A DNA stretch of 64,000 nucleotides. It comes from a virus. Lineage: Duplodnaviria > Caudoviricetes. Position 1 is the stretch's first letter. Every line of letters begins with the position of its first letter. The translations under genes and the position numbers were made by a program. Positions 24,159 to 42,039 of this stretch are shown piece by piece. The stretch lies in the IMG/VR virus record IMGVR_UViG_3300048898_000066, positions 5,325-69,324 of that record. The stretch is one strand, 5' to 3'. The notes under the pieces were generated by a model, which saw only the letters and a list, made by a program, of their open reading frames with translations, had not been told where the DNA came from and searched no databases.

Positions 24159-24716
24159 TTAGCCCTCCAGACCGAGTGCAGCTACTGCACCGGCGTAAGC
24201 AGGATCGTCGGATTTGATGAATGCACCGTTGTACATTACGCCTAGTCGGTCTTTGATCTCGTCGTAAGCGTATTCAAGGCATGCTGCCATTTCCAGAGCA
24301 TACAGGTCGCAGATATTCTGGAGGAAGTGCAAAAACGCAGACAGATTCGTCTGGAAAGTGCCAACTTGGCCTTTCAGCACGTTGTCGGCCATGCAACCGA
24401 GAACTGATGCGCAGCACAGGGAGTTCTTTTGTGCCGAGCCGGATGGCGTTTCACCCATCATGTTTGCCACTTGCAGGCACAGGCCGAAGTCCACGCCCAG
24501 TTGCGCGGATACGATGATCTGTGTCACTAGCGTATCGCCAATGCCATCAACGATAAGGTCACGGTCTTCGTTGATGATGGCCTGCGCCAGTTCACCAAAT
24601 TCGGAGACGGTCTTCAGGGTTTGCGATTTCGGGTCGGAACCCTTGATCAGGTTGCGGGCTTCAGCCCACGCAACGACCATATTTGCCGTTCGCAGCAAGC
24701 GCTCTTTATCAATCAT
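24159..24716 (-). CDS. MazG-like nucleotide pyrophosphohydrolase
   Basis: K..SE.GEL, DGIGD and AY.EIKDR.G motifs. Confidence 0.8.
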   Translation of the reverse strand: MIDKERLLRTANMVVAWAEARNLIKGSDPKSQTLKTVSEFGELAQAIINEDRDLIVDGIGDTLVTQIIVSAQLGVDFGLCLQVANMMGETPSGSAQKNSLCCASVLGCMADNVLKGQVGTFQTNLSAFLHFLQNICDLYALEMAACLEYAYDEIKDRLGVMYNGAFIKSDDPAYAGAVAALGLEG

Positions 24717-26185: not shown

Positions 26186-26216
26186 GGTATGTTTCCTTTA
26201 TGGTTTGTGTTGCTGA

Positions 26217-27214: not shown

Positions 27215-27242
27215 ATTCTCTCCTTTCTAAGGTTGATTCTAT

Positions 27243-27404
27243 GCCGGTTACTTATCCGGCGCTCCGTCAAGCAGCCCCTATTGGGTTTCATCCGATGTCC
27301 CGTAGCCGTCGCCCACGGTTAGATGCAGTTATTTGCGTCGTTCACCTGCACCAACTAAAGGCCATTTACTGATTAACGCTTCGGCCTTTGAGGAACCTCG
27401 ATTA
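27243..27404 (-). ncRNA. Candidate structured small RNA/leader
   Basis: ORF-free; TATAAT at the 5' side (27399-27404); about five consecutive hairpins. Confidence 0.35.
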
Positions 27405-27417
27405 TAACGCCTTTGCG

Positions 27418-28887: not shown

Positions 28888-29293
28888 ATTTCAATTGCTC
28901 CAGGTAGTTGATGATGTCTTTTACTGTTCCGTGAACTATGCACTTCTCGTTGATGTATGCCTTGCGAATTTCTGCTACTTCTGTTGTCGGGTCAAACAAC
29001 CACCAGAATTCGCCACAACGCAGACCTACAAAGCCATGTCCACCCCAGCTGATTTTCTCGCGCAGGAACGGCAACTGGCCTTTCTCAAATGCTCCTTTCA
29101 ACACTTTCGTATCGCCGCGAACAGGCAGCGCATCCAACGCCTTCAGTTCAAGCCATATGTCTATTCCGTTGTGGCCTTGAACCACAAAATCAGACATGCC
29201 GCTGCCGTTCTGGTTTTCGATGCGCTTGCAATTCAAGGTGCCTTGAGACTTTTCCATCAGCACCTTGTAAGCGCGTTGCTCTTTTAGCGCCAT
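28772..29293 (-). CDS. VRR-NUC/PD-(D/E)xK nuclease
   Basis: RIEN..G.GMSD and WLELK motifs; 3' end overlaps the helicase by 116 nt. Confidence 0.7.
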   Translation of the reverse strand: MALKEQRAYKVLMEKSQGTLNCKRIENQNGSGMSDFVVQGHNGIDIWLELKALDALPVRGDTKVLKGAFEKGQLPFLREKISWGGHGFVGLRCGEFWWLFDPTTEVAEIRKAYINEKCIVHGTVKDIINYLEQLKYEDIPYAAPNYRPGTKRRKAQFCVPDGTGNGENLADAG

Positions 29294-29484
29294 GCAACCA
29301 CCACTTGTTTGCGGATATGGACGGCCTGAACGGCATATGCCACCGACACCGTAATCACGATGCACCCTACTGCCAATGCACAGATCCACAAAGGATGGCG
29401 ACTGCGACTAATCAGGATATTCCCGACTGTCAAAACGATGGCTACAATACAGACCATCAACAAGGCATAAATTGCGATTTGCAT
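29284..29484 (-). CDS. Small two-TM membrane protein (holin candidate)
   Basis: 66 aa; two hydrophobic helices and a basic C-terminus; coupled to the Pol stop. Confidence 0.5.
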   Translation of the reverse strand: MQIAIYALLMVCIVAIVLTVGNILISRSRHPLWICALAVGCIVITVSVAYAVQAVHIRKQVVVAWR

Positions 29485-32399
29485 TACTCTTCCTCCTCTT
29501 CAGGTTGATCTTCTTTTGGTTCAATAGGCGTATCCAATCGCTTTATGTTTTTGACAATGAACATGTCAATGTCCTTAAGCTTCCAGCCTTTGATAAGGAA
29601 CCACGACCCCATCGGCGCTGTCTCTGCGATAGGCTTGCCCAAGGTTGGGAACTTGTCCGGACGAACACGGAATCGCATGGGAGAATCTGTCGAATCGTCC
29701 ACCATCATCAGGTCAACGAACTGGGTGAGGCCTTTCTTAATCTCGCCACCTCGCTTCTTGATCCTGATGGCCTCATTCTCGTCGGCCAAAACCTTTTTGA
29801 CCAACTTGCCGATTACAAGGCCGTCATCCTTGTCCTTGACCTCCTTCATCCCGACAATTCGATTGCCGGACGTTACACCAGCCAGTCGTGGGTCGTCATA
29901 GAAATGGCCCCACTTTGTGTGAGCTTCCGCCAAGTCGGAGTACTTCACTTCGGCATTCGCCAACGACGCTGCGGCCTTATCAAACTTCGCACGCAACTTC
30001 GGATCAGCATCACGATTGGCGCGCATCTCGATGAATTTCGCAGCTTTCACCGGGCCATAACCCTTTGCATTCATGATGCCACCGATCAGACGGCCATCGG
30101 CCACTTTCCAGTTCATATCGCTGAACTCAGGGTCAATCGGCGTATAGCCTACCCCTTCTTTTGCCATCTCGCGCAAGATTGCAATGACCTGTTCATCATC
30201 TTTCGCAGCACGAAGACAGGCCGCAGCAAAGTGGAGAGGATGGTAACGCTTCAGCCACAACGTCCAGTAAGTCACGACGGCATAGCTGACGGAGTGCGAC
30301 TTGTTGAAGCCCCACGAACCAAACGTGACCATTTCATTCCAAATCTTCTTGGCTTGATCTTCTGGCACGCCTTGTGACGTTGCACCTGCCACGAAGTCTG
30401 CGCCCATTTGGTTGAAGTACTCTTCGCCCTTACGACCCGACATGGCCTTACGAACTGCAGAAGTCTTCACCCAGTCAAACAGGCCAATTTCCTTGACCAC
30501 GGACATGATCTGTTCCTGATACAGGAAAACGCCGTAAGTGTTCCGTAGGTACTTCTCCAGCTGGGGCACGTCGTAGCTAACTGGCTCCGACCCCTTGGCG
30601 CGTGCGATGTACTTTTGGGCCATACCGGAAGCTAGTGGGCCAGGTCGCGCCAGCGCCGTTAGGTTGTCGATTTTACTGAACGAGTCAACGTGCACGGAGC
30701 GAGTAACAGATCGCACGGCATCACCTTCAAACTGGAAGATGCCAGATACTTTGTCTTGATTGAGGATGTCTAGCACAGACTGATCATCAAGCGCCAGAGA
30801 ATACAACTGGTCTGCAGTCACAACGCCGGAGTCCTCGATGATGCCAAGAGTGCGAAGACCAAGAGCGTCAATCTTGAGCAGATTCAGATATTCGCTGTCC
30901 GGCTTGTCAATTTGCGCCACGCCTTCTTCATTCACTGTGCAGTAGTCGGTCACTTCGTCATTACAGACGAGAATTCCCGCCGCGTGAACACCTGTGTGAC
31001 TCGGGTGAATCTCCAGGTCTGACATGCACGCTGCGGCATCCGGATATTTCTCACGAAAATCCTGTCCAGGTGCTGTCTGCTCAAACGTATCATTCAAGCC
31101 TTTGCCGTAACGCGCGTCACCGGACGAATATTCAATCAAAGCATTCTTGACACTGGAAGTTTCACCGAACGAAATGTTAAACTTCTTGCCGACTTGTGCC
31201 ATGACGGAGTTGGCCTTGAGCGTGTTGATATTCCCCAGCTTTGCGACGTTATCTGCGCCGTACTTCTCTTTCAGGTAGTCAAATACCATATAGCGCTTGG
31301 TATCTGCAAAGTCGATGTCGATGTCCGGCAAGTCGGCTCGGCTGATGTCGATGAATCGTTGGAACAGGAGGTCGTGTGGCAGAGGGTCCACCTCAGTTAT
31401 TTCAAGGAGGTAACATACCAGAGAACCAGCCGCAGAGCCTCGCGCAGGGCCCACAAGCATGTGGCGCTTAGCAAAGCGAACAAGGTCAGCCACAACAAGG
31501 AAATAACTATCAAACGACTTGTTTTGAATCTGGCGTACCTCTTCCAAGAGCCGTTCTTCGTATTCATTTGTCCACTCCTTGATATGGCCGCGTGCAAGTC
31601 GGCTGGCCTGCCCTTCGCGGCAGAGGGCTACCATGTCTCCTTCCAGGTGAATGATCGGAGCCTTCTTGAGCGAGATGCCCTGCAGCTGGCGCGCGAGAGC
31701 GTGGGTGTTATCCACGGCCTGATTGAACATTTTACGCGGCATCACCAGTCGCAGCTGTGACCAGATTTCTGCTTCAGAGGCAAGATGGCGAACGCCGACA
31801 GAGTCACGGACTTCCCAAGCATAAGCGAAGTCTTCATGCTTCTTGTCTGGAACGTCGTTGTAGTTGGTGATGACCATCGGCAGACCGTGTTTGATGGCAA
31901 ACTGGTAGTTCTCGTAAGCCAGCGTCAGCGAGGATGGATTGATGTCCACCAACAGATCGTCCATCTCTTGTCGCGATACATATTCCTCCATTCGGTGCGA
32001 TGCGCCGCCGACAAATTTCAGGCACCCTTCCAGAGACAGAAACTCCTCGGCAGTCAGGCCGCGATTACGTACAGATTTTGACGTGGCATGGTACATCTTG
32101 ACGGTATCCAGCCCGATAATCCATGCTTTTGGTTTGAACTTGGCATCTGGATGTGCCATCGATCCGGAATCGCCAAAAGTGTCATCGCTGAATAATATCG
32201 GAATCTCCATTCCAAACCCGGCTTGAATCTCTGCCTTCTTTGCGGCCTGTTCGAAACGCACGTGACCCCAAGTGGCAGAGTCAACGATGCACGCCGTAGT
32301 AGCGCCGATCTCTTTCAGGCGATCAAACACCTCAGGCATACGGCCATATCCTTCTCGGAACGAATACCCTGTGCGCACCCGCAGTTGTGGTAAAGTCAT
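29484..32399 (-). CDS. dnaE: DNA polymerase III alpha subunit (family C)
   Basis: 971 aa; GPARGSAAGSLV, RADLPDIDIDF, HAAG, KIDALGL, YQEQIM and WGFNKSH motifs; degenerate PHP N-terminus. Confidence 0.95.
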   Translation of the reverse strand: MTLPQLRVRTGYSFREGYGRMPEVFDRLKEIGATTACIVDSATWGHVRFEQAAKKAEIQAGFGMEIPILFSDDTFGDSGSMAHPDAKFKPKAWIIGLDTVKMYHATSKSVRNRGLTAEEFLSLEGCLKFVGGASHRMEEYVSRQEMDDLLVDINPSSLTLAYENYQFAIKHGLPMVITNYNDVPDKKHEDFAYAWEVRDSVGVRHLASEAEIWSQLRLVMPRKMFNQAVDNTHALARQLQGISLKKAPIIHLEGDMVALCREGQASRLARGHIKEWTNEYEERLLEEVRQIQNKSFDSYFLVVADLVRFAKRHMLVGPARGSAAGSLVCYLLEITEVDPLPHDLLFQRFIDISRADLPDIDIDFADTKRYMVFDYLKEKYGADNVAKLGNINTLKANSVMAQVGKKFNISFGETSSVKNALIEYSSGDARYGKGLNDTFEQTAPGQDFREKYPDAAACMSDLEIHPSHTGVHAAGILVCNDEVTDYCTVNEEGVAQIDKPDSEYLNLLKIDALGLRTLGIIEDSGVVTADQLYSLALDDQSVLDILNQDKVSGIFQFEGDAVRSVTRSVHVDSFSKIDNLTALARPGPLASGMAQKYIARAKGSEPVSYDVPQLEKYLRNTYGVFLYQEQIMSVVKEIGLFDWVKTSAVRKAMSGRKGEEYFNQMGADFVAGATSQGVPEDQAKKIWNEMVTFGSWGFNKSHSVSYAVVTYWTLWLKRYHPLHFAAACLRAAKDDEQVIAILREMAKEGVGYTPIDPEFSDMNWKVADGRLIGGIMNAKGYGPVKAAKFIEMRANRDADPKLRAKFDKAAASLANAEVKYSDLAEAHTKWGHFYDDPRLAGVTSGNRIVGMKEVKDKDDGLVIGKLVKKVLADENEAIRIKKRGGEIKKGLTQFVDLMMVDDSTDSPMRFRVRPDKFPTLGKPIAETAPMGSWFLIKGWKLKDIDMFIVKNIKRLDTPIEPKEDQPEEEEE

Positions 32400-32620
32400 T
32401 GCAACTCCATTTCATAAAGCTCCCAAGAACGTTCGTCAGCGTCAGAAGCAATGATCACTTTGCCATTCCCAGCTGCAAGACACTCGGCAGTTTCGACTTC
32501 CATGTTGGTTGACTCAATAAGAGTCTTGTAGCCAGGTTTTTTGGCAAAGACGCAAGCTACTTCACGGTCTATCCAATCACCCTCATCATCGCAACTTTGA
32601 AGAACCCATACAGTCTTCAT
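32396..32620 (-). CDS. Hypothetical protein
   Basis: 74 aa acidic; ggag SD; overlaps both neighbours. Confidence 0.6.
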   Translation of the reverse strand: MKTVWVLQSCDDEGDWIDREVACVFAKKPGYKTLIESTNMEVETAECLAAGNGKVIIASDADERSWELYEMELQ

Positions 32621-33168
32621 ACACACTCCTTTCCAATATTGTAAACACCCATCACCTTGGCCATTTCATGCATTAGTCGAACGTCGTCCAATGCCCTGTG
32701 TTTCTGGATGTAAGGCTGGCCGGTTATCCGCTCGTACAGTTCAATCAGTCGCATGCGGCGACCGAAGCGGTGAAATGTTTGCTCTACTGTACAGATTTGA
32801 ATCTCTGGAAAGTTGACGTCTTTCAGCGTCAGGCCGATACGCTCCAGATCCCACTGCAACATCGACTTATCGAATGACAGGCTGTGGGCGATACATGCTT
32901 GAGCGCGACCGAAGAAGTCTGCCAGTTGCGGCACGAATTCTTCAAATGGAGGTTTCGTCTCCAGATCGGCGTTTGTCAGACCTGTGATCTCTGTGATGAT
33001 TGGCTCGATTGCGACGCCTGGATTGCAGATGAATTCAAGCGTGTGAAGAACACCATCTCCGTCTGTGATCATGCCGCCGAATTCGATGATGCGAGGTTGT
33101 TTATTGCGCGAAACTAGGCGATGCGCAGGAAGCCCGGTAGTTTCGGTGTCGTATGGTGCAAATAACAT
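32617..33168 (-). CDS. DEDDh 3'-5' exonuclease (epsilon-like)
   Basis: DTETTG, AHSLSFD and HRALDD motifs. Confidence 0.9.
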   Translation of the reverse strand: MLFAPYDTETTGLPAHRLVSRNKQPRIIEFGGMITDGDGVLHTLEFICNPGVAIEPIITEITGLTNADLETKPPFEEFVPQLADFFGRAQACIAHSLSFDKSMLQWDLERIGLTLKDVNFPEIQICTVEQTFHRFGRRMRLIELYERITGQPYIQKHRALDDVRLMHEMAKVMGVYNIGKECV

Positions 33169-33217
33169 TAAGCCACCTTTCTTGATTGCATTTCTATTCT
33201 TTGAATTCTATGTGACA

Positions 33218-33583
33218 AGGGCCGGAAAAACGTCAGGTTCATCCGGCCCTCGGGCTAGGTACGAACAACAGAATTGCCATATCCTGCTGCGGATGATGGT
33301 ACAGGCTGCTTGGAATCATCACTCTCCACTTTACCGCGTGCCTGCTTGCGTCTGATTCTATCTAGGCTTTCGAATCAGCAACTCTCTAATTCCCTGTCTG
33401 ACTAGTATGACTGGGTGCGCCCGCGAGTTTAATCGTTTGGTGTATCCAGCGTCACCTCCCGGCTGTCTGGATCGTTTAAGAGTGCACCGCGCTACACTCG
33501 CCTCACGCGGCCCGTCGAACTGTATCAGACGCCGTTGAAATTAAGGCGACAGTTCGACGGGCCAAGGCCGTAAAAGAACTATA
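33218..33583 (-). ncRNA. Candidate ~350-nt structured ncRNA
   Basis: 420-nt gap with no long ORF; TATAGT at the 5' side; 15-bp perfect stem 33509-33523/33549-33563; further stems ctgattc/gaatcag and agggccgga/tccggccct. Confidence 0.45.
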
Positions 33584-33588
33584 GCCGA

Positions 33589-34167
33589 TTACTTGCGCCC
33601 ACGAGTGGACTTGCGCTTAACACGGTCTGCCTTGATCTGTGCAGGGCGCGCTGGCGAGGCGTCAAACGGGGTGCCGTCCATGTTCAAGCGCACAATAAAC
33701 TTCAGGTCAACGCCGATAATGTCCACGGTATCAAAGATGACGTAGTTGTAACGGCGCTCGTCCTTGATGAAAGGATTTGTGTGCGCTTGCGTGATGACTT
33801 CTTGAGCAACAGAGATGCCTTCGCGGTTGAAGTATGCGCGGAAGTCGGCCAGTTCTTCAGCAGAGCAGTGCATGCCCAAGTGGGACACAGTATTCTCCGG
33901 ACGACGACGCAGCCAGTTGTTGCCATCGACGTATTTCAACACTTCCAGTTCCAGCGACTTGCCTGCTGGGTCGTTTCCATTCCCGGATTGATAGTTGAAC
34001 TGGAGGAGTGCGCTGTTGCAACCTTCGACGCCGAATACTTTGCCGCCAGCAACAACATTGTCCTTGAACCAGTCCGTCAGGCCCAGGTCGGACAGCAGCT
34101 TGATTGCGCGGTCGGTGTTCTTTGGTGCGATTGCGATTTGCTCGATGCGGAATTGCAGTTTATTCAT
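33589..34167 (-). CDS. VOC/glyoxalase-superfamily protein (epimerase-like)
   Basis: IEQIAIA, LELEVL, SHLGMH and DLKFI beta-strand pattern of paired VOC modules. Confidence 0.7.
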   Translation of the reverse strand: MNKLQFRIEQIAIAPKNTDRAIKLLSDLGLTDWFKDNVVAGGKVFGVEGCNSALLQFNYQSGNGNDPAGKSLELEVLKYVDGNNWLRRRPENTVSHLGMHCSAEELADFRAYFNREGISVAQEVITQAHTNPFIKDERRYNYVIFDTVDIIGVDLKFIVRLNMDGTPFDASPARPAQIKADRVKRKSTRGRK

Positions 34168-34183
34168 TATTTCTCCTTGTTGA

Positions 34184-34876
34184 TTATTTACCGAACGGGA
34201 TGTCGGTGCCAGACATGTATTTTACCGGGCCGTCGCCGTCTGGGCCGATCAGATGGCCGATGAACTCTGCCAGCGCGTATGGGTCGGATTCCAGGCCGTG
34301 CATCAGGGCCTTCTTCTGGTATTCGGCGGCGTACTCCGGAGTCCAGCCGCGAACTTTGCAGACATTCGCTTCGATTTGCTTGGACATCTGCGTGCCGGCC
34401 AGCTTGTTCGGAGAGATGGACAGGACGGTGATGCCGTGTTTGTTGGTCAGTTCGTGTGCCATCTGCTTGGTTGCCATCAGCGCAGCAGCCTTGCTCATGT
34501 TGTAGGCCAGGCTGGAAGTCATCGGAATCGTTGCGGCGTTGCTGACGATGTTGATGACTACACCGCGATTTCGCTTCAAAGCTGGCAAGCAGGCCTGAGT
34601 CATATAGACAGGGCCGAAAGCGTTCACCAGCATGACCTTGGACAGGGATTCGTGCGTAACTTCTTCAAACCACTCGTTGTGATTGATACCGGCACAGTTG
34701 ATCAGGACGTCAACGTCAACGTCTTTCAGCCATTCTGCCGGTTGCGATACATCGTTTCCGTTTTCGATATCGTATCCGAACACATTGTGACCAAGACCTT
34801 CGTTCAGAATGTCCGCGATCATTTCGCCAAGGCCGTTGCTGGAGCCGGTCACGATGATGTTAAGTTGCTTTCCCAT
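34184..34876 (-). CDS. Short-chain dehydrogenase/reductase (SDR)
   Basis: TGSSNGLG, LINCAG, VN..G, NIVS and Y.MSK catalytic motif. Confidence 0.9.
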   Translation of the reverse strand: MGKQLNIIVTGSSNGLGEMIADILNEGLGHNVFGYDIENGNDVSQPAEWLKDVDVDVLINCAGINHNEWFEEVTHESLSKVMLVNAFGPVYMTQACLPALKRNRGVVINIVSNAATIPMTSSLAYNMSKAAALMATKQMAHELTNKHGITVLSISPNKLAGTQMSKQIEANVCKVRGWTPEYAAEYQKKALMHGLESDPYALAEFIGHLIGPDGDGPVKYMSGTDIPFGK

Positions 34877-34908
34877 TTATTCCCTTTCAGTTATTGTTAC
34901 GTTTTTGA

Positions 34909-35886
34909 TTATACCGGCTCTTTATGGATTTGGATGTTGTGCTTTTCTGTCAATCGCTCAACGAATCCGCCGTAAATGGAGCCGTCGTGAATCGAGTCCT
35001 TGTGTTTCAATCCAGAGTTGACGAATCGTGTCAATTTGACGATGTTCAGTTCGAAGAGGTGCCACATCTCAAAGTCTGCCGCAGTCTTAAGCGTTACGCC
35101 GTTGGGGAACATCACCGCCAGCATATCTGCAACCTTAGATGCGTTATAACCGTAGTCTGCGGAACGGCTCCGGAGCGTAGCCGACATCTGATCGAAAATC
35201 CCGGCGATTTCCGCCAGTTCCGGCGAGGCAGAGGCCGTCGCTGCAGGCATTGAATCCTCCTTACTGTGTCCGTTTAGAGCCGGTTTAACAGGTCTTCCGA
35301 TGTCAGTCAACATCAGGTCGCCTTCGCGGAAAATTCGCGGTGATGCGCCGGAATGGTAGCAATAAACGCCAGATTTCACGTTGGAGCGATAGCAAGTCAA
35401 CCCTTTTGCTGCATAAGCACTCAGAACATCAATTCTGTCATCATATGCCGCGACCACTTCAACGTCATTCCCTTCACCAATCAACTTTTCAATGTAAGAA
35501 GACAGCAGATCAATCTTCAGATCCGGAGAAGTCTGAAAGTCGCCATTAGGTCGCATCCATGTCTCTGCGCGAATTGGCTCTTTCAAGTTCGCTACGCCTT
35601 CTTTCCCCAGCCACACCTCCGTCTGCTGGCGGTATTTAACCGGCCTGGCAGTCAGGAACAACACACGAAAGTCGCACCCGCGATAACGCGTAATAAGACC
35701 TTGCAACGCCAAAAAGCCCGATGGAATAGGAGGGTCGCTTGGCGCTAGTTCATTGTAGGCATCATACGCCTCGTGCGGCGTGTTGCCGTCCTTCTCTGGT
35801 AGCAGGTGCAAACGATGCCTATCATCCGACAGACAGCCATCAATATCGAATACGGCAAGTTTGATTAGGTTCTTTTTCTGTTCCAC
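34909..35886 (-). CDS. HAD phosphatase fused to all-alpha nucleotide-pyrophosphatase-like domain
   Basis: FDIDG, LTAR, MRP..D and YDDR motifs; C-terminal R..DYG / KLTR / DS.HD..IY; GTG start after the thyX stop. Confidence 0.75.
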   Translation of the reverse strand: MEQKKNLIKLAVFDIDGCLSDDRHRLHLLPEKDGNTPHEAYDAYNELAPSDPPIPSGFLALQGLITRYRGCDFRVLFLTARPVKYRQQTEVWLGKEGVANLKEPIRAETWMRPNGDFQTSPDLKIDLLSSYIEKLIGEGNDVEVVAAYDDRIDVLSAYAAKGLTCYRSNVKSGVYCYHSGASPRIFREGDLMLTDIGRPVKPALNGHSKEDSMPAATASASPELAEIAGIFDQMSATLRSRSADYGYNASKVADMLAVMFPNGVTLKTAADFEMWHLFELNIVKLTRFVNSGLKHKDSIHDGSIYGGFVERLTEKHNIQIHKEPV

Positions 35887-35887
35887 G

Positions 35888-36721
35888 TTACATACTCTTT
35901 CCGCCAGAGGCAACAGGGTTGGCTTGCGCAATCTCTTCACGCGACCAGAACTTCACGCGAACTTCCTTTTTGAGTTGCGCCAAGTCCATGCGCGGATCGT
36001 AGTGAGGGCATTGGAAGCCGATATTGGCAGCCGTCGAATTAAACATGGCATCGGCCATATTCTTGAACACCTTGCCATCAGAATCCTTCGGAGCGCCGCC
36101 CCAACGAGGAAACGCGCAGGTGCCTGTCGCAACGCAATGAACCTCCAGCAACGGCGCGGCCCATGGATAGATATCCAGAACCAGCTTGCGCATGGCACGG
36201 AACACTTCCTGGTATTCGCCCTGAGTACGTGCGCACAGGCGAAGCTTCGCCATATCAGACAGCGTGCGCAGGTTGAACTTCGCGTCGATGACGGTGGCCA
36301 TATTCGAAGGGATGACTGCCCGCGCATCCTGGAGTTGAGCGCCTGCTGCGATAAGCTTCTTGTAGTGGGCGTTTGCGTCCGCCACGCCGTCCTGGAACAG
36401 ATTGAACAGTTCACCGCCTTCTTCAAAGTTCTCTGGCGTTATTACTTCGCCGACCTCAAGAGCGCGGCTGGTTTCCTGCTGGTACGCACCGGTGCGCGTG
36501 CGAACGAATTGATGGGTGAAATTTTTGCTGACGCCTTCGATGTGAAAGATGAAGTCCACAAACTCAAACGGGGACTTGATCGTATCCAGCATATACTGGA
36601 AGTGATCATACAACTCTTCATTTGACATCTCTTCCGGCGACTTGCCGCGCATGCGCGTTGTCTTGGTTCCTACAAGCAACTCCAGCGCGTTCTGGGTGTA
36701 TGACTTAAGTACAACTTTCAT
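35888..36721 (-). CDS. thyX: ThyX-family flavoenzyme with non-canonical motifs
   Basis: SPFEF, HQFVRTR.....ETSR, AR.V.P and N.R......LR....Q.E motifs. Confidence 0.85.
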   Translation of the reverse strand: MKVVLKSYTQNALELLVGTKTTRMRGKSPEEMSNEELYDHFQYMLDTIKSPFEFVDFIFHIEGVSKNFTHQFVRTRTGAYQQETSRALEVGEVITPENFEEGGELFNLFQDGVADANAHYKKLIAAGAQLQDARAVIPSNMATVIDAKFNLRTLSDMAKLRLCARTQGEYQEVFRAMRKLVLDIYPWAAPLLEVHCVATGTCAFPRWGGAPKDSDGKVFKNMADAMFNSTAANIGFQCPHYDPRMDLAQLKKEVRVKFWSREEIAQANPVASGGKSM

Positions 36722-36972
36722 TTAACGTCCCTTTCGTGTCTATAGAACCATTCCGGTGAATCGTAGTTCACGCCTCTGCGAAAATGCTCTTCAAGTCGCA
36801 TGACGACACAGCCGATTTCGGTCGGGTTCAGCTTTGTCGATACACCCAGTATTTCGCACTCTCGTACTTCAATCTGGTGGATCCTTGATGGGTTGATGCC
36901 GTACTCATCGGCCAGTTCAATGACCGTCTTTCCGTGAGCCCGCTCAAGAAGTATCTTGGTGTTTCTTCTCAT
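36718..36972 (-). CDS. Small HTH DNA-binding protein (sigma70 region-4-like)
   Basis: GKTVIELADEYGINPSRIHQI helix-turn-helix pattern; own TATAAT and SD. Confidence 0.6.
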   Translation of the reverse strand: MRRNTKILLERAHGKTVIELADEYGINPSRIHQIEVRECEILGVSTKLNPTEIGCVVMRLEEHFRRGVNYDSPEWFYRHERDVK

Positions 36973-37035
36973 TCTATTCTTTCTAGTTGTTAGGCGAGAA
37001 GATTATAACTCAATACCTACTCGCCTAACTGTTCA

Positions 37036-37578
37036 TCAGAAGTTGCCAGGTGCCACTTGGAAGCAGTTCACGCCGTTCCTTCTCCACATCGCGACAACCT
37101 TATCACGGTCGTCGAACACCGCAACCAACCTGGCACGATCTTCCGGCGGCAGAAGGCCCAGCCAACGCATCTTCAATACGTCGTCATGTGTGAAGTCGTC
37201 GGCCTTGCGCATCTGCAGTTCGTAGTCAACGCCGATGTGATTATCCAGCCAGTCCAATGTCTTGCCTGCGACCTCGTCAGAACGGCCTGACCAGATACGA
37301 ATTTCGCAGCCTTGTGAACGTAACATCGTCAAAGTGCGAATGACAGGCCAGTTAGGTTCATCCTTGTCGCAAGCGGCATAGAAGGCTTTCCAGTCCGGTT
37401 TGAATTTCTGATCAAGACCGGTATAGCCACAGTCAAGACAGGCCGGGTCAGCGCTGCCGACATGTCCTTCACCGCCGCAAGTAGAGCAAGGCGGGCGCTC
37501 AACGAAGTGACGACGGTGGTCAATCAATGCAAGCGTGCCATCCAGATCAAAGATGTAAAGTGGACTCTTATTGGCCAT
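37036..37578 (-). CDS. HAD phosphatase (PNK 3'-phosphatase-like)
   Basis: FDLDGT, WSGR, MR...D...D..LK and FDDR..VV.MW...G..C.QV motifs; CxxC..CxxC insert. Confidence 0.85.
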   Translation of the reverse strand: MANKSPLYIFDLDGTLALIDHRRHFVERPPCSTCGGEGHVGSADPACLDCGYTGLDQKFKPDWKAFYAACDKDEPNWPVIRTLTMLRSQGCEIRIWSGRSDEVAGKTLDWLDNHIGVDYELQMRKADDFTHDDVLKMRWLGLLPPEDRARLVAVFDDRDKVVAMWRRNGVNCFQVAPGNF

Positions 37579-37762
37579 CGAATTCTCCGCTAAGAGTGGC
37601 CTTCAGAGCGTTGAAGGACTCAGCAATGAACACTTCTGCGCCGCCGAACAGAATCAACTTGCAACCGTTCTGCAGAGGCTTGATGCCCATAATTGCGTCT
37701 GGGCGGATGTGGATGGGTGCGCTGGCTTGGGCGCGTTCGGTCAACTCGATAAATTGTCGCAT
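37568..37762 (-). CDS. Hypothetical protein
   Basis: 64 aa; aggag SD. Confidence 0.6.
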   Translation of the reverse strand: MRQFIELTERAQASAPIHIRPDAIMGIKPLQNGCKLILFGGAEVFIAESFNALKATLSGEFDGQ

Positions 37763-37775
37763 TCACTTCTCCTTG

Positions 37776-38780
37776 TTAAAATGGGATGTCGTCATCAAAC
37801 TTCGTCGTTTGTGTTGCGTGGTAGTGCAGAGCGCCGTAGTCACCGGCCTTGATCAGTTTGTCGATGACCTTGATGTCGTCTACTACGTCATCAAGCAGAA
37901 TGTTTTTCCAAGTGGCGAAACGGCCCAGGGAATATACGCCATAGTCACGCGTCAACGAATAGATCGCGGCACGGCGCAGGTTCTCTGGCATATCCACGAT
38001 CTTGCCGTACTTCTGGTCAACCGTCTCAATGAATGTCAGAGATCGCTTGCTTATGCCAAACGATTCGCACACCACGAAGTCCAGTTCACTTTCGATCAGA
38101 CTCAACATGTACTTGTCGGCTTCGCTGTAGCCGTCGATGGACTCGACAATCATCACATCGCCGGTGATAGATGCACGGAATACGCGCAGGTCAGGCTCTG
38201 GGTAGTAGATGGTCTGGTACACGTTAGTGCCTGGCGGCAACTGGTATCTGTCAACACGAATTGCCGCGCGGTCGGATTTGGCGCTGAGTTGCGCTTCCAG
38301 GTCCAGACTCGTGGCCGTAGCGATCACGTGCAGCGGCGCTGTGTTGATGTGCACTACATCGTCTTTGTATTGAATTTTTGGGATGTAATTGATCGGCGAG
38401 TTGTATGCAATTCGCGCACGGTGGCGATCTACCAACTGCGCGTGAAAGTCGTCCGGGGCGACGTAGCGGGTGACGGGCTCCAAATTCCAGATGCTGCGTC
38501 CACGGAGTCCGTTGGATACTTTCTGGCTGTACTGGTTTGCCATTCGGATATCGCAGGATGTGTGCAGGCGCTTGTCAGAGTGCGTCCAGATGCCCTTGTG
38601 CACCTTAACGTCTTTGAATGGGATGCCGGTGAGTTCTGACACGTTTCTGGTGCGGAAGCGGAGGAGTGCCTTGTGCTGGCTGACCTCTGAACCTGCCTCG
38701 TAAATGAATGCATCTTTGAAATGGCACGCCGCGATAAGGCCAGCAAGTCCTGCGCCGATGATGATTTGTGTTTTGCTCAT
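37776..38780 (-). CDS. FAD-dependent oxidoreductase (Glf/UDP-galactopyranose mutase-like)
   Basis: IIGAGLAG Rossmann motif; C-terminal YSLGRFATW...LDD. Confidence 0.75.
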   Translation of the reverse strand: MSKTQIIIGAGLAGLIAACHFKDAFIYEAGSEVSQHKALLRFRTRNVSELTGIPFKDVKVHKGIWTHSDKRLHTSCDIRMANQYSQKVSNGLRGRSIWNLEPVTRYVAPDDFHAQLVDRHRARIAYNSPINYIPKIQYKDDVVHINTAPLHVIATATSLDLEAQLSAKSDRAAIRVDRYQLPPGTNVYQTIYYPEPDLRVFRASITGDVMIVESIDGYSEADKYMLSLIESELDFVVCESFGISKRSLTFIETVDQKYGKIVDMPENLRRAAIYSLTRDYGVYSLGRFATWKNILLDDVVDDIKVIDKLIKAGDYGALHYHATQTTKFDDDIPF

Positions 38781-38817
38781 TGATACCTTTCTTTACATTC
38801 TATATGGTCGTTAAAAA

Positions 38818-38844
38818 GCCCAGGTAATCTTACGACTCCTGGGC
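38818..38844 (-). terminator. Intrinsic terminator, followed by TAGAAT (38797-38802)
   Basis: gcccagg...cctgggc plus TTTTT on the - strand. Confidence 0.65.
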
Positions 38845-38907
38845 CTAGGTGGTTGGTGTTAAATTTACGGAATTCGACGGTCCACCACCTTTGCTGCACT
38901 TTACAGA

Positions 38908-39699
38908 TTAGGCTTCTGCAGCCGGTTCAGGTTGCGGATCGGATTCCACGGTGTGGAATTCCAGGTGACCCATTTCTTCCAGCTTGCTCAGGTAGCTGCG
39001 GATGGACGCGCCATACAGCATGCCTTTGCACTGAGTGCCGATGTAGTCGATTTCGACTTGTTCGCCGACAGGGCAGTTTTCCTTGATCCATGCCAGCACA
39101 CGGCCACGGGTCGAAGTTTCTTGTGGCGAGGACAGGCCATGGCCGTTGTACGAGATGTGGGTGGCCTTGGCACGGCGTGCGCCATCGGTCTTGTTGGCAG
39201 CTTTGCGGTCGGCAATGGCCTTGGCGCGTTCAGCGGCCTGATCCTTGCGGGCTTGCTTCTGAGCTTCGACTTCAGCGGCCTTCTGGGCTTTGGCAGCTTC
39301 CTTGGCAGCTTCACGTTCAGCTTTAGCGGCTTCCTTGGCCTTCGCGCCTTCAGCCTTTTTCAGTTCGGCTTCAGCTTGGCGTTTTTCTGCGCGTTCAGCA
39401 GCAGCCTTTTCTTTTTCGGCCTGGCGCTCAGCAGCCTTTTGCTCGCGCTCGGCTTCCTTCAGCTTATTCTCTTCTTCACGCTTGGCTTCGCGCTCTTTGG
39501 CGGCGGCTTCACGCTTTTCTTGCTTGGCGCGGTTTTCTTCTTCGCGCTTGGCTTCTTTTTCCTTGTTTGCGGCTTCTTTCTTTGCCAGTTTTTCTGCGTC
39601 GGCAGCAGCCTTCTTCTCGGCCTTTACACGAGCGGCTTCGGCCTTGGCTGCAGCTTTTTCTTCGGTGGTCTGGGTGTTCTCTTTGGTGTTCTGATCCAT
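38908..39699 (-). CDS. K/A/E-rich protein with C-terminal winged-helix-like domain
   Basis: 263 aa; about 170 aa low-complexity helix; strong SD aaggag; TTGAAC-16-GATAAT upstream. Confidence 0.75.
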   Translation of the reverse strand: MDQNTKENTQTTEEKAAAKAEAARVKAEKKAAADAEKLAKKEAANKEKEAKREEENRAKQEKREAAAKEREAKREEENKLKEAEREQKAAERQAEKEKAAAERAEKRQAEAELKKAEGAKAKEAAKAEREAAKEAAKAQKAAEVEAQKQARKDQAAERAKAIADRKAANKTDGARRAKATHISYNGHGLSSPQETSTRGRVLAWIKENCPVGEQVEIDYIGTQCKGMLYGASIRSYLSKLEEMGHLEFHTVESDPQPEPAAEA

Positions 39700-39803
39700 G
39701 GTAAATCTCCTTTAGGTTAATTGCTGAAATAAGCAGTTGGTGAAAGGATTATCGCTTTAAACCGTGAGAGTTCAAAGCGATAATCATGAACACTGACGTC
39801 AAG

Positions 39804-40232
39804 TTAGATTCTTGGCTTTGTCGGATTAAACGGCAGCCAACTAATCCAGATAATTCCGATCCACACATCAAGACGCACATCGCGACTGGTCATCTTAAAT
39901 CCAATCGCCCGGTAGAAGGAATCGCCGCACGATCTCCAGCCTATTGGATACTTAGGCTCGTACTTGGCCAGATGTTCAACCATGGCCTTGTCGGCGGCCC
40001 ATCTCTTATTGTCGTTGCGCCATGACATGTGGCTTTGTGATTCTTGCCACGGAAAGCAACCCAATGTGACATTCAAGAAACGGAAGAATGTCAGTGACCT
40101 GTCATCGCGGCGCTTAACGATCCATCCCCATCCATGGCTGTGGTGCACAACGTACAACACTGTCGCAACCGTCACCGAAAAGATCACCATGAAGCAGCCA
40201 AGCACAAACCATAATAACAAATCCACGATCAC
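39804..40232 (-). CDS. Hypothetical membrane-anchored protein
   Basis: GTG start overlapping the helicase stop; N-terminal TM. Confidence 0.5.
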   Translation of the reverse strand: MIVDLLLWFVLGCFMVIFSVTVATVLYVVHHSHGWGWIVKRRDDRSLTFFRFLNVTLGCFPWQESQSHMSWRNDNKRWAADKAMVEHLAKYEPKYPIGWRSCGDSFYRAIGFKMTSRDVRLDVWIGIIWISWLPFNPTKPRI

Positions 40233-41404
40233 TTCTCCCTGTACATAAGCAAATTGGTGATGGCGCGGGTGATTCCGGTATAGGCCAACTGAGCATACGG
40301 AACGCCGCGCATGAACTCGTCCATCATCAAGACTCGCTCCCACTCCGACCCCTGCGAAGAGTGAATTGTCAGGCAATACCCAAAGTCCCACGCGCCAATG
40401 GCCTTCATCGCCTCCTTACGCACCTCTTCGAACTGTGCGCCTTCGTAGAAGCAAATCGGATTGAACTTGGCCCGACGTTCTTTCATGTACGTCAACGATT
40501 TGAACCGGATGTACTGAACGCCGTCCTGATCGTTCTCATCTTTCTCATAATCAGGAACATCGTCAAATCCGAGGACAATCACCTGCTCGCCGTTCATGAT
40601 TCCATGTTCGTGCTGATTGAAACGACAAACCAGTTTCTCGCCAATCTGCGGCATCATATCTGTATGACCAAGCAAACGGCGGGCGCGCTTGTTCAAGGCG
40701 ATGCGGGTGTTGTGATAGGATGACAGCATCACGGCATCTTCGCCGCAATACGACACAATCTCTTCATCGGAAGGGGTGCCAGGGCGGATTTGCACGTCAT
40801 CGTACTCGCGGAACGGCAGAGAGCTACCGCCACGGACGAACATCGAAGCGCGAACGATGTTGCCTGCGTTGCGTTCGATGTCGGTCAGGGTGAAATCTGC
40901 ATTGGCCTCGTTGAATACCTGCGCGGCCTTGACAGGCGGCACCTGCCCATAATCGCCCAACGCAAGGATTGGAATGCCATGGCGCTCAACAGCTTCGAAG
41001 TCATATTGACCAACCATGGACGATTCATCCATGACAACGAGCACAGGCGTGTAATCAAGCGCGCCCTTGCCTACGAAGATAGGTTCACCTTCCTCATTCT
41101 CGCCGCGAACGTTGTACACGAACTGGTGAAGAGTCCTCGCGGTCGGGCAACCCTTCTGGCGCAGACGGCTTGCGGCCTTCCCGGTTGGGGCGATGAATTC
41201 GACGCGGAAGTTGCTGCCTCCTGAACACTTATCAGCGATGTAGCGGGCCACGGTTGTCTTGCCCGTACCGGCGAACCCGGAAAGACGGAAGACCTGTTTA
41301 TTGTGCCTTCCGTCTTTCCATCCCTTGAACCATTCAATGGCGAGTTTGACCGCCTGTTTCTGCTGGTCGTTGAATTGATCGTAGGAGATTTGTGGCGCTG
41401 TCAT
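40229..41404 (-). CDS. SF1B ATP-dependent helicase (Dda/RecD-like)
   Basis: GFAGTGKT, APTGKAA, DESSM, GDYGQ, TIHSSQGSE and YTGITRA motifs. Confidence 0.9.
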   Translation of the reverse strand: MTAPQISYDQFNDQQKQAVKLAIEWFKGWKDGRHNKQVFRLSGFAGTGKTTVARYIADKCSGGSNFRVEFIAPTGKAASRLRQKGCPTARTLHQFVYNVRGENEEGEPIFVGKGALDYTPVLVVMDESSMVGQYDFEAVERHGIPILALGDYGQVPPVKAAQVFNEANADFTLTDIERNAGNIVRASMFVRGGSSLPFREYDDVQIRPGTPSDEEIVSYCGEDAVMLSSYHNTRIALNKRARRLLGHTDMMPQIGEKLVCRFNQHEHGIMNGEQVIVLGFDDVPDYEKDENDQDGVQYIRFKSLTYMKERRAKFNPICFYEGAQFEEVRKEAMKAIGAWDFGYCLTIHSSQGSEWERVLMMDEFMRGVPYAQLAYTGITRAITNLLMYREK

Positions 41405-41619
41405 ACGGTCACCGTCAACTTGATGCTGTGCTCTTTTGCGTGGCAGTTAATTGCCGTGATCATCTCCGCTGCGCACGACCTGATCACACCGACTTCTGGC
41501 GCGGCAGTATGCGCCTTGTGGACGACGCTAAGAAGTGCGTTGAGCGATGCCTCGCACTCAACGGTAATGATCATCGGCACAAATTCCTTCTTGCCATCTT
41601 CATATTTCAAATATGCCAT
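41401..41619 (-). CDS. Hypothetical protein
   Basis: 72 aa; gaaagga SD. Confidence 0.6.
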   Translation of the reverse strand: MAYLKYEDGKKEFVPMIITVECEASLNALLSVVHKAHTAAPEVGVIRSCAAEMITAINCHAKEHSIKLTVTV

Positions 41620-41760
41620 ATTCTTTCCTTTCTGTTAGTTGGTCCAGTTTGGCCCGTTGGGTGAGAGTATAATCGGTATTGGTGACGTAAGGTTCGGCCA
41701 CTTCGGCCACACAGCTGAAGCTATACTATCGAAGTTGAACAACCAAATAGAAAGAAGAGA

Positions 41761-42039
41761 ATGATCAATAAAGATGAGTTACTACGGAAGGCGCTGGAAA
41801 AGCAATATCCAATTCCGGATAGTCCACACACTTCTGTTGTTCAAAACAACGCCGATAAGCGCATAGCATTTCAAGAAGGTTATGAAACAGCAGTGGCTGA
41901 TGAGGCCATTCACCACCTCGCACAACTACAGTTCAGTCCAGAGCCTGGCGTTTGGCGCGCCTGCACGGCCAGTATGTATGATAAAGCGCCAGAGTACGGA
42001 TACAAACGGCGAGTGATAAAAGTAATCAGCGAGGATTAA
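41761..42039 (+). CDS. Hypothetical protein
   Basis: 92 aa; TATACT upstream. Confidence 0.6.
   Translation: MINKDELLRKALEKQYPIPDSPHTSVVQNNADKRIAFQEGYETAVADEAIHHLAQLQFSPEPGVWRACTASMYDKAPEYGYKRRVIKVISED

Follow-up and report, generated by a model that had tools for sequence, protein, structure and literature searches.

Hypermodified thymidines have been described for the phages PhiW-14, SP10, ViI, M6 and PaMx11 (Lee et al. 2018, 2021, PMC8989533). Their pathways start from a thymidylate-synthase homologue, employ tailoring enzymes including flavoenzymes, modify T only in part and protect the DNA from nucleases. All known pathways of this kind begin with such a homologue or with TET/JBP, flavoenzymes act on the side chain, and in M6 and PaMx11 flavin-dependent enzymes and kinases work on thymidine side chains that are already part of the DNA (PMC8989533). 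The side chains of these phages are derived from amino acids, and the enzymes include a ThyA-type dUMP hydroxymethylase, a 5-hmU DNA kinase and aGPT-Pplase amino-acid transferases. A sugar is present in the arabinosyl-5-hydroxycytosine of RB69 and DLP3 (Lee et al. 2026, PMC13326640). There a flavin-bound, ThyA-type thymidylate-synthase homologue acts on dCMP and gives an unusual C5-substituted pyrimidine mononucleotide, a HAD phosphatase handles a sugar phosphate, explicit sugar-nucleotide synthesis genes and glycosyltransferases are present, and the final DNA is sugar-decorated.

Closest to the locus described here are the Pbunavirus phages F8 and 14-1, therapeutic Pseudomonas phages related to our phage. 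Their DNA carries a sugar- or polyol-derived thymidine hypermodification to which no genes were assigned (Yee et al. 2025 preprint, PMC12191111). New nucleosides derived from thymidine were measured at 362 and 390 Da, the side chains of F8 and 14-1 differ, about a quarter of T is modified in F8, in the TG context, and according to the authors both phages lack known modification genes (PMC12191111). Further, Wifceviruses were found to resist nearly all restriction systems tested by no known mechanism. In Wifcevirus Bas98, for example, there are about 36 EcoRI sites (if the column order is as we inferred it), yet of the restriction systems tested only EcoP1 acts against it.

The operon and its position

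The locus lies in a 64,000-nt stretch of DNA (the window) from an uncultured, PB1-like phage. An earlier note, made from the sequence alone, had proposed six co-oriented enzyme genes directly upstream of a phage-encoded Pol III alpha and exonuclease, with a MazG-like enzyme in the same arm. The ORF list and motif and profile searches located all six genes on the minus strand at 33589-38780, and the three other genes where the note had placed them (Table 1).

Table 1. Features of the block and of the same arm of the window
Feature	Position	Strand	Evidence	Remark
FAD-binding protein (FADp), 334 aa	37776..38780	-	GxGxxG, phrog_4828	first gene of block; core trio
Stand-alone HAD phosphatase, PNKP type	37036..37578	-	Pfam HAD_PNKP E 1e-27, phrog_415	
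84-aa ORF inside block	36718..36972	-	ORF list	stop overlaps ThyX start
Variant ThyX (Thy1/ThyX, non-canonical)	35888..36721	-	Pfam Thy1 E 1.3e-29	core trio
HAD_PNKP + DUF6378 fusion	34909..35940	-	phrog_4889 E 8e-47, Pfam HAD_PNKP E 1.1e-5	core trio
Classical SDR	34184..34876	-	adh_short E 1.2e-28	lineage-specific add-on
VOC-fold protein	33589..34167	-	Glyoxalase_4 E 9.6e-5, 23.1 bits	add-on
Structured intergenic region, 420 nt	33169..33588	-	RNA fold	closes operon
DnaQ-like 3'-5' exonuclease	32617..33168	-	Pfam RNase_T E 3.6e-21, phrog_192	
Phage DnaE (Pol III alpha)	29484..32399	-	DNA_pol3_alpha E 2.7e-64, phrog_405 E 6e-258	
MazG-like nucleotide pyrophosphohydrolase	24159..24716	-	phrog_1992 E 2e-49; Pfam MazG E 1.3e-3, below cut-off	
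ATP-dependent DNA ligase	22926-23846			same arm

The small ORF within the block has no PHROG match, and in Pfam only a sub-threshold match to Sigma70_r4 (E 0.003). The intergenic region contains a long perfect hairpin after the VOC stop codon and a second hairpin ahead of dnaQ. Its predicted RNA fold has -149.8 kcal/mol (z -3.8 versus shuffles) and no Rfam match, and at the equivalent position in phage Mansfield a terminator is annotated. The MazG-like gene is kept in PB1, F8, 14-1 and Mansfield; that it belongs to the pathway is something we only infer.

As noted earlier, no glycosyltransferase was recognised: there was no Pfam match to one among the 40 ORFs scanned. In the same ORFs neither 5-HMUDK nor aGPT-Pplase, families known from thymidine hypermodification, was found, and because none of the three was detected, no other candidate pathway is visible. 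Likewise, a ThyA-type dUMP hydroxymethylase was not found and sugar-nucleotide synthesis genes were not recognised among these ORFs. In contrast to the amino-acid-based systems, this phage has a thymidylate-synthase homologue of the ThyX type, and a sugar-derived side chain would be expected.

Enzymes of the block

The ThyX protein is a variant, in agreement with the earlier note. It matches Pfam Thy1 with 103.8 bits, above the Pfam threshold, but with 74.4 bits it stays below the cut-off of 87.9 bits of the NCBIfam thyX equivalog; its profile match to solved ThyX structures is weak (E 6e-10), and a ThyA family match was not found. In comparison to canonical ThyX (PF02511 / TIGR02170; T. maritima, M. 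tuberculosis), the Thy1 domain, the dUMP-binding arginines and the C-terminal N..R..LR..Q.E region are kept. However, the signature reads RTRTGAYQQETSRA where the canonical one is RHRxxSxxxxSxRY, with RHR changed to RTR and the motif Ser and Tyr each changed to Ala, and SPFEF replaces the HxxPFEH box, with loss of its His. The residues missing are, we presume, the equivalents of His53, His79 and Tyr91 in T. maritima numbering. The signature differs at four of seven positions, is invariant across 42 homologues and is identical in PB1, F8 and 14-1. The variant also has an added C-terminal tail, in which three of the four invariant cysteines (Cys163, 196, 202 and 238) are located; the remaining one belongs to the core. 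A variant-motif ThyX with a Cys-rich tail is encoded by the actinophages Onyinye and Rooney as well, both of which lack FADp and DUF6378. Therefore the variant alone is not diagnostic of the pathway, and it may simply be an unusual thymidylate synthase.

FADp has the motif GAGLAG at residues 9-14 and matches phrog_4828 with E 2e-102, while Pfam (including GLF and NAD_binding_8) and NCBIfam searches gave no match. Among its 2068 homologues, mostly from contigs of 60-75 kb, none has a Pfam domain; 13 Arg/Lys residues are invariant or nearly so. Its AF2 model (pLDDT 83.6) resembles UDP-galactopyranose mutase (UGM; Z 17.7), protoporphyrinogen oxidase (PPO; Z 16.6), and MAO and LAAO (Z ~15) in structural searches (Foldseek, VIA), and its atlas neighbours are Amino_oxidase families. 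The best match, T. cruzi UGM (299 residues, rmsd 4.1), shares the two-domain FAD fold, but sequence identity to UGM is 12-15%, FADp is about 100-150 residues shorter, and PPO and the amine oxidases match practically equally well. Thus, the earlier description as Glf-like applies to the fold and not to Glf itself: FADp is an FAD-binding member of the amine-oxidase/PPO/UGM fold class. UGM and ThyX both work via flavin-N5 iminium adducts.

The stand-alone HAD has DLDGT at residue 11 and a CxxC..CxxC insert (CSTC at 31, CLDC at 47). It has no counterpart at the equivalent position in Mansfield or PB1 and is an accessory paralogue. The fusion protein probably starts at the GTG at 35886, just past the ThyX stop codon and preceded by the SD-like sequence GGAAAGAG. 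Its HAD motifs are DIDGC at 32, TAR at 97 and DDR at 167, and HKDSIHD is found at 313. The helical domain, which the earlier note had called pyrophosphatase-like, turned out to be DUF6378 (detected in 8 of 9 aligned domains), a confident 4-helix bundle (AF2 pLDDT 91.1) for which neither structure nor profile comparison showed a significant relation to MazG or dUTPase. Relatives have the HAD and DUF6378 domains either as separate proteins or joined in one. In PHROG both HADs are annotated as relatives of 'polynucleotide kinase', and by Pfam and motif check both are devoid of a kinase domain.

The SDR (TGSSNGLG at 10, matching TGxxxGxG; NCAG at 60; YNMSK at 125, matching YxxxK) is a classical SDR of the FabG / acetoin / polyol-reductase type, with generic classical SDRs as nearest solved structures (E 1e-14). 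The VOC protein scores below the Pfam cut-off of 27 bits for Glyoxalase_4, but several of its 569 homologues have PF13669; Gln10, Glu73, Glu75, His96, His100 and His129 are invariant, and a sequence search found no solved relative. It belongs to a phage-specific clade of the glyoxalase fold.

Distribution of the core trio and of SDR and VOC

In 50,697 phage records FADp (362 records), full-length variant ThyX (349) and DUF6378 (363) have nearly exactly matching organism tallies. Their hosts are Pbunavirus-like myoviruses and Rhizobium jumbo phages, where the trio stands beside dUTPase and RNR, among ordinary dNTP-supply genes. The gene order of the block is repeated in isolates and metagenomic contigs at 35-65% protein identity; the arrangement goes far beyond chance. 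The linkage of DnaE to the module is found in Pbunavirus-like phages and in Krampusvirus, and these comparisons support the view that the block functions as a conserved unit linked to the phage DnaE/DnaQ.

The co-occurrence of the six genes, proposed earlier as a check, was found for this trio and not for the whole set. SDR and VOC strictly co-occur, with matching organism tallies, in 51 records from Wifcevirus and from phages of Serratia and Xanthomonas (no SDR in Pseudomonas phages), and VOC is additionally present in 4 Microbacterium phages, 55 records in total. In the Microbacterium siphovirus RikSengupta, SDR, VOC, DUF6378, an NT5C-like HAD phosphatase and an FAD oxidoreductase adjoin DnaE. 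This block lacks ThyX and its FAD protein is only tentatively related, but genes nearby encode a GT2 glycosyltransferase and a ThyX that carries the same variant motif.

F8 and 14-1 belong to the same supergroup as the window phage and share with it FADp, the variant ThyX, HAD-DUF6378, DnaQ/DnaE, MazG and the gene order. SDR and VOC are absent from Pbunavirus, including F8, 14-1 and PB1, phages that have the modification or the core genes. Since these lack both, the basic side chain must arise without SDR and VOC, contrary to the idea that it is made by mutase, SDR and VOC steps; SDR and VOC are tailoring rather than core steps.

Possible functions of the block

We see about even chances that the block is a deoxypyrimidine-modification operon, in which the core makes a sugar- or polyol-bearing thymidine, SDR, VOC and the second HAD tailor it, and protection from restriction results. 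The earlier proposal of a sugar-derived, C5-substituted pyrimidine is plausible but unproven: the sugar- or polyol-like side chains reported for F8 and 14-1, which have the core genes, match this guess. Its second part, incorporation in place of T before replication, did not hold up as well. Since the modification in F8 reaches no more than about one T in four, and only in the TG context, simple wholesale replacement is disfavoured and a selectivity step at the DNA level is implied.

In such a pathway the variant ThyX would hold the dUMP phosphate by its kept arginines and activate C5 via flavin-N5 chemistry, and, lacking the three residues named above, would not just end the reaction by transferring a hydride to give dTMP. 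FADp, of a fold class that includes the flavin-N5 iminium enzyme UGM, may then supply or couple the sugar-derived unit. Either an exocyclic methylene could be captured by a sugar hydroxyl, for which the mass arithmetic fits 362 and 390 Da, or an aldose phosphate could serve for reductive C5-alkylation, which fits 362 Da. HAD/DUF6378 would strip the phosphate from a sugar-phosphate side chain or clear competing dTMP, the polyol could be oxidised or reduced by the SDR and isomerised by the VOC protein, and the linked DnaE/DnaQ would cope with the altered nucleotide. The TG specificity in F8 would need a further step at the DNA level, not assignable to any gene of the window.

It is rather unlikely that the block serves ordinary nucleotide supply, with the variant ThyX as a genuine divergent dTMP synthase, FADp as a redox partner re-reducing its FAD, HAD/DUF6378 and MazG as nucleotidases or pool sanitisers, SDR and VOC as unrelated auxiliary metabolic genes, and the Pbunavirus modification made by other, unrecognised genes. 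The Thy1 score and the kept arginines, the same variant next to DnaE in actinophages without FADp or DUF6378, the dUTPase and RNR beside the Rhizobium trio, and the NAD(P)H binding by eukaryotic UGMs among the fold matches of FADp are in line with it. However, it does not explain the single phyletic pattern of FADp, DUF6378 and the ThyX subclade, or why two unrelated phage lineages have SDR and VOC inserted in this very operon; it leaves the experimentally shown hypermodification without a candidate gene, and a thymidylate synthase needs no phosphatase.

Action on DNA after replication would account for the TG-specific, roughly 25% modification in F8 and has a precedent in the flavin-dependent enzymes and kinases of M6 and PaMx11. 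FADp would oxidise or activate the thymine methyl or 5-hmU in the TG context, a sugar phosphate would be added, and the PNKP-type HAD, whose family has a T4 member acting on polynucleotides, would dephosphorylate on DNA, the variant ThyX supplying only dTMP or 5-hmdUMP. The basic residues of FADp also suit it. We regard it as improbable: neither a DNA-binding domain in the block proteins nor a transferase was detected, mononucleotides are the substrates of ThyX-fold enzymes and of NT5C-like HADs such as that of RikSengupta, and the close association with a dedicated polymerase fits a change at the pool level. Somewhat less probable still is a small-molecule or nucleic-acid-repair role apart from base modification, such as end-healing by a PNKP-like 3'-phosphatase with the same-arm ligase, or making or destroying an anti-defence metabolite, although PHROG relates both HADs to polynucleotide kinase and small carbonyl compounds are usual substrates of SDR and VOC proteins; the missing kinase domains and the strict association, in phages of different lineages, with FADp and a ThyX homologue speak against it.

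For the modification operon speaks further that SDR and VOC, which strictly co-occur, lie inside it and are confined to lineages including the restriction-resistant Wifcevirus. It is also favoured by the matching tallies of the trio and its recurrence in Rhizobium jumbo phages, by the RikSengupta block, by the invariant changes in the ThyX signature and by the precedents of the known thymidine and arabinosyl-5-hydroxycytosine pathways. Against it are the lack of a recognised DNA-binding or base-flipping domain in the block proteins, though the F8 pattern points to a DNA-level writer, the ordinary surroundings of the Rhizobium trio, and the similarity of FADp to UGM, which is no better than that to PPO or amine oxidases. 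The palindrome-avoidance signature was not specific when GC content was controlled. In addition, F8 and 14-1 differ in their side chains despite the same gene content in the arm, the only notable divergence being in HAD-DUF6378 (81% identity).

The window phage adds SDR, VOC and the second HAD to the genes of F8, 14-1 and PB1, and its final base is thus probably a different one. The gene set is the best candidate, still unproven, for the sugar-bearing thymine measured in the related therapeutic Pseudomonas phages.

A leftward gene block next to dnaQ and dnaE

The virus record has a length of 69.3 kb and is rated complete; the window covers 64 kb of it. The block of six co-oriented enzyme genes described in the earlier note is real and represents a leftward operon, the products of which were assigned to families on the basis of motifs and profiles (see the table below). 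It is followed by a spacer, dnaQ and then dnaE, and the same arm also holds a MazG-like gene, an ATP-dependent ligase gene and helicase genes. In the spacer, a long perfect hairpin is located directly past the VOC stop codon and a second hairpin precedes dnaQ. An Rfam scan of window positions 27000-42000, the spacer included, matched no family. The spacer probably combines a terminator and a leader, and it possibly encodes a separate RNA.

Genes of the operon and the adjoining spacer (window positions)
Feature	Position	Strand	Remarks
FAD protein, 334 aa	37776-38780	-	GAGLAG dinucleotide motif; phrog_4828; no Pfam or NCBIfam family
HAD_PNKP phosphatase, 180 aa	37036-37578	-	CxxC..CxxC insert
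84-aa ORF	36718-36972	-	
Thy1/ThyX homologue, 277 aa	35888-36721	-	
HAD_PNKP phosphatase with C-terminal helical domain (fusion)	34909-35940	-	likely start GTG at 35886, directly past the ThyX stop
Classical SDR, 230 aa	34184-34876	-	full cofactor and catalytic motif set
VOC-fold protein, 192 aa	33589-34167	-	Pfam score sub-threshold
ORF-free structured spacer, 420 nt, between the VOC gene and dnaQ	33169-33588		z -3.8

Upstream of the FAD protein gene, window 38908-39699 codes for a protein of 263 aa (phrog_4765), in which about 170 residues are Lys/Ala/Glu-rich and of low complexity (a KAE-rich coiled coil). Its small globular C-terminal domain is, by eye, a putative winged helix, and conservation among relatives is confined to the C-terminal part.

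A megablast search with the block against phage records gave zero matches, and at the nucleotide level the window has no close match in phage isolates. At the protein level (26-65% identity), the order FAD protein-ThyX-HAD-DUF6378-(SDR-VOC)-DnaQ-DnaE is conserved in Wifcevirus Mansfield, Aeromonas phage Gekk3-15, the Pbunavirus relatives PB1, F8 and 14-1, and a dozen IMG/VR contigs. Searches of 50,697 phage records matched the FAD protein in 362 (349 near full length), the variant ThyX of the operon (ThyX*) in 349 at full length, and DUF6378, the helical domain of the HAD fusion, in 363. By organism these tallies are nearly alike (Pseudomonas 291-292, Escherichia 27, Serratia 9, Rhizobium 8-10, Xanthomonas 6). 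These three form the core trio. The SDR and VOC genes were found in 51 and 55 records, respectively. By organism tally the 55 are the same 51 plus four Microbacterium phages; no Pseudomonas phage is among them, and several metagenomic relatives lack both genes. The SDR and VOC genes are an add-on to the core trio.

Related gene sets exist in more distant phages. The strongest genomic sign that these families act together is their recurrence in an unrelated lineage, the siphovirus RikSengupta (Microbacterium phage, Krampusvirus; OQ995427). Beside DnaE it encodes an FAD-Rossmann oxidoreductase (hhalign probability to the FAD-protein family 45%), an NT5C-like HAD phosphatase, an SDR, a VOC protein and a DUF6378 protein (E 6e-33; L023:3800-7115). 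A few kb off there are a GT2 glycosyltransferase and a 459-aa ThyX-domain fusion with the variant motif (L024:1366-2745). The DNA of RikSengupta may be modified, too. The trio is also present in Rhizobium jumbo phages. In one of them, RHph_TM2_3B (MN988523, 206 kb; L025:5811-12473), the FAD protein is 36% identical and is accompanied by an exonuclease, the variant ThyX and a HAD-DUF6378 fusion, with dUTPase and ribonucleotide reductase genes directly after them.

Properties of the encoded enzymes

The FAD protein was compared to solved structures using an AlphaFold model (pLDDT 83.6) for which 45 homologues served as input. The best match was T. cruzi UGM (UGM Z 17.7 and 17.5), followed by PPO (Z 16.6, 16.5 and 16.4) and by amine, L-amino-acid and aromatic hydroxylase flavoenzymes (MAO, LAAO and PHBH-type; about 15). 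Structural matches that differ by less than 1 Z unit are treated as ties, and for this model the UGM, PPO and amine-oxidase-type matches are effectively tied; its atlas neighbours are Amino_oxidase families. At the sequence level, the protein showed no GLF (PF03275) or NAD_binding_8 membership and no Pfam or NCBIfam match at E <= 0.01, and its profile aligned to PDB sequences only in the N-terminal FAD dinucleotide-binding motif (E 0.25). The designation Glf-like, used in the earlier note, applies to the fold only, and PPO and amine oxidases fit the fold about equally well.

ThyX* belongs to Pfam Thy1 (PF02511; residues 30-187, 103.8 bits at a cut-off of 24.8), a domain which it shares with canonical ThyX, and no ThyA family matched it. 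However, its score for the NCBIfam equivalog TIGR02170 (74.4 bits) lies under the curated cut-off of 87.9, and the match to solved ThyX structures is weak. Instead of the canonical signature RHRxxSxxxxSxRY it contains RTRTGAYQQETSRA, in which four of the seven signature positions are altered, and instead of HxxPFEH it contains IKSPFEF, which lacks the His of this box. ThyX* keeps the arginines by which canonical ThyX holds dUMP. The altered signature, the IKSPFEF change and Cys163, Cys196, Cys202 and Cys238 are invariant in 42 homologues, and PB1, F8 and 14-1 share the signature. One of the cysteines is in the core (RLCARTQGEYQ) and three are in the C-terminal tail (C-x5-C-x-F-x-x-W ... C). 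This four-Cys pattern, which also occurs in actinophage ThyX-like proteins (L026:3719-4651; L027:3776-4822), points to a putative Zn or Fe-S site that is absent from canonical ThyX. The actinophages Onyinye and Rooney harbor a ThyX-like protein with the same motif type and a Cys-rich tail adjoining DnaE, but neither the FAD protein nor DUF6378, and therefore the variant ThyX clade is wider than the module. The ThyX of Gekk3-15 retains RHR (ERHRHGSFAERTMRA), so the signature is not uniform within the group.

Both HAD proteins have HAD_PNKP domains: the 180-aa protein with the nucleophile motif DLDGT (E 1e-27), and the fusion with the motifs DIDGC, TAR and DDR (E 1.1e-5). Since a kinase domain is absent from both, they are phosphatases only and not true PNKP. 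The helical domain of the fusion, assigned by Pfam to DUF6378, was modeled as a confident four-helix bundle (pLDDT 91), in which conservation falls on HxDSxHD, K..R and Y, not on ExxE. In an hhalign comparison with the MazG of the same phage the probability was 0.5%, Foldseek gave no match at E <= 0.001, and the best VIA matches (Z up to 6.9) were to generic helical bundles. Thus, the view that this domain is pyrophosphatase-like could not be supported. DUF6378 is recurrently fused to, or the neighbor of, a HAD_PNKP phosphatase, which indicates that the two domains work together. The literature searched on DUF6378 and DUF1599 yielded nothing informative. In Gekk3-15 the HAD-DUF6378 protein (L003:10757-12190) reaches 477 aa, its two domains being set apart by about 150 additional residues.

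The SDR (adh_short, E 1.2e-28) harbors TGSSNGLG at residue 10, NCAG at 60, IVSNAA at 110 and YNMSK at 125, corresponding to the cofactor, NNAG-type and catalytic motifs of classical SDRs. The VOC protein reached 23.1 bits at a Pfam cut-off of 27, and PF13669 is present in some homologues. Its invariant Gln, Glu and His would be compatible with a metal site; neither its single sequence nor its profile matched PDB sequences.

A candidate role in thymidine modification

In F8 and 14-1, about one quarter of T, in TG context, is replaced by novel nucleosides derived from thymidine, with a mass of 362 Da in F8 ('erythrose/threose sugar alcohol derivative') and of 390 Da in 14-1 ('circularized aldopentose derivative'); the authors emphasize that both phages lack the genes customarily used for predicting hypermodification (Yee et al. 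2025, PMC12191111). The characterised thymidine hypermodifications all start from a thymidylate-synthase homologue or TET/JBP, and the side chain is then processed by tailoring enzymes, flavoenzymes among them (PMC8989533); the arabinosyl-5hoC pathway relies on a TS homologue that binds flavin and on a HAD phosphatase (PMC13326640). In a Pfam scan restricted to 40 ORFs of the window, we found no ThyA-type dUMP hydroxymethylase, 5-hmU DNA kinase or aGPT-Pplase/amino-acid:DNA transferase, and, as already stated in the earlier note, no glycosyltransferase.

We consider the chances about even that the block is a phage thymidine-modification operon. It would be a hypermodification pathway with an enzyme set unlike the known ones, and by analogy with the characterised thymidine hypermodifications and the arabinosyl-5hoC pathway its steps could be as follows. 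ThyX* would activate C5 of dUMP without plain methylene reduction, the FAD protein would provide or couple a sugar-derived unit, HAD/DUF6378 would strip a side-chain phosphate or clear dTMP, SDR and VOC would re-tailor the polyol in this lineage, and the linked DnaE/DnaQ would cope with the altered nucleotide. By our own mass arithmetic, 362 corresponds to 5-hmdU plus tetritol minus H2O or to dU reductively alkylated at C5 by an aldopentose, and 390 to 5-hmdU plus pentose minus H2O; masses on their own cannot choose between the routes. It is tempting to speculate that ThyX* and the UGM-class FAD protein form a 'sugar-thymidylate synthase', in which flavin-N5 iminium chemistry would attach a chain of sugar origin to C5 of dUMP (by trapping of the exocyclic methylene or aldose-phosphate reductive alkylation) before HAD/DUF6378 removes the phosphate. 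This would be the source of the Pbunavirus 362/390 Da nucleosides, and SDR and VOC, here and in Wifcevirus, would lead to a further, undescribed thymidine derivative and to near-complete restriction resistance; in this specific form the proposal is improbable. A gene-by-gene comparison of F8 and 14-1 revealed the same gene content, the most divergent large protein being HAD-DUF6378 (81% identity), which is not decisive for the side-chain difference.

The earlier note had proposed that a C5-substituted dUMP is made and incorporated in place of T. This interpretation is partly supported. TG specificity calls for an extra step at the DNA level, and our search for a DNA-level writer, which took in the 263-aa protein and the Pam3-like proteins described below, revealed no gene for it; a purely pre-replicative model is weakest at this point. 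Of the T in this genome, 30.6% is in TG context. Between the helicase and MazG genes (window 25304-26885) there are two conserved genes for Pam3 gp34-like (PF23977, E 6e-84) and Pam3 gp33-like (DUF7307, E 5e-40) proteins, which are also present in PB1, F8 and 14-1; the encoded proteins are possible candidates for the DNA-level step. Alternatively, but with low probability, the block could act wholly on DNA, or it could have an end-healing or small-molecule function. Ordinary dTMP supply by an odd ThyX with a redox partner, in line with the ThyX-like genes of actinophages and the dUTPase/ribonucleotide reductase neighborhood in Rhizobium phages, we regard as rather unlikely.

Restriction data bear on the modification reading. 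F8 DNA is cut by EcoRI (PMC12191111), whereas the Wifcevirus Bas98 resisted all tested restriction systems except EcoP1, with about 36 EcoRI and 93 EcoCFT_II sites (Humolli et al.; table column order inferred). On this basis the SDR/VOC-bearing lineage appears to be more broadly protected; restriction-digest data for Wifcevirus isolates were not found in the literature searched. Avoidance of 6-bp palindromes was also considered as a sign of TG protection. For those containing TG/CA, the observed/expected ratio was 0.97 in this phage, 0.96 in F8 and 0.99 in Mansfield vs 0.72 in lambda and 0.59 in phiKMV, the only two controls. However, the TT/AA and TA classes act alike, and in a GC-controlled regression the TG term was positive in the controls, too. 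Since the effect is unspecific once base composition is controlled, it was not counted as evidence. In the whole genome, some 6-bp palindromes are nearly missing: CCGCGG (0 observed vs 22.7 expected), CGATCG (0 vs 14.7), CGGCCG (2 vs 24.5), GTCGAC (3 vs 18.4) and ATCGAT (6 vs 26.5); GAATTC (35 vs 35.2) and every TG/CA-containing palindrome are at expectation.

Importance for Pbunaviruses and Wifceviruses

Pbunaviruses belong to the phages most often chosen for Pseudomonas therapy, and Wifceviruses are candidates for the biocontrol of E. coli. Which host defences these phages escape (restriction systems) and which they trigger (END nucleases) depends on their DNA modification. The Pbunavirus modification was first found in 2025, and the literature searched contains no later paper giving its genes. 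With a candidate set of four to seven genes now defined, the question is directly testable in available isolates. If true, a ThyX-based, sugar-type route would join the known thymidine hypermodification systems, which are ThyA-based and amino-acid-type (Lee et al. 2018/2021). Further, three families currently without a function (phrog_4828, DUF6378 and the phage VOC clade) would gain one, and more chemical diversity would be predicted in the lineages carrying SDR and VOC.
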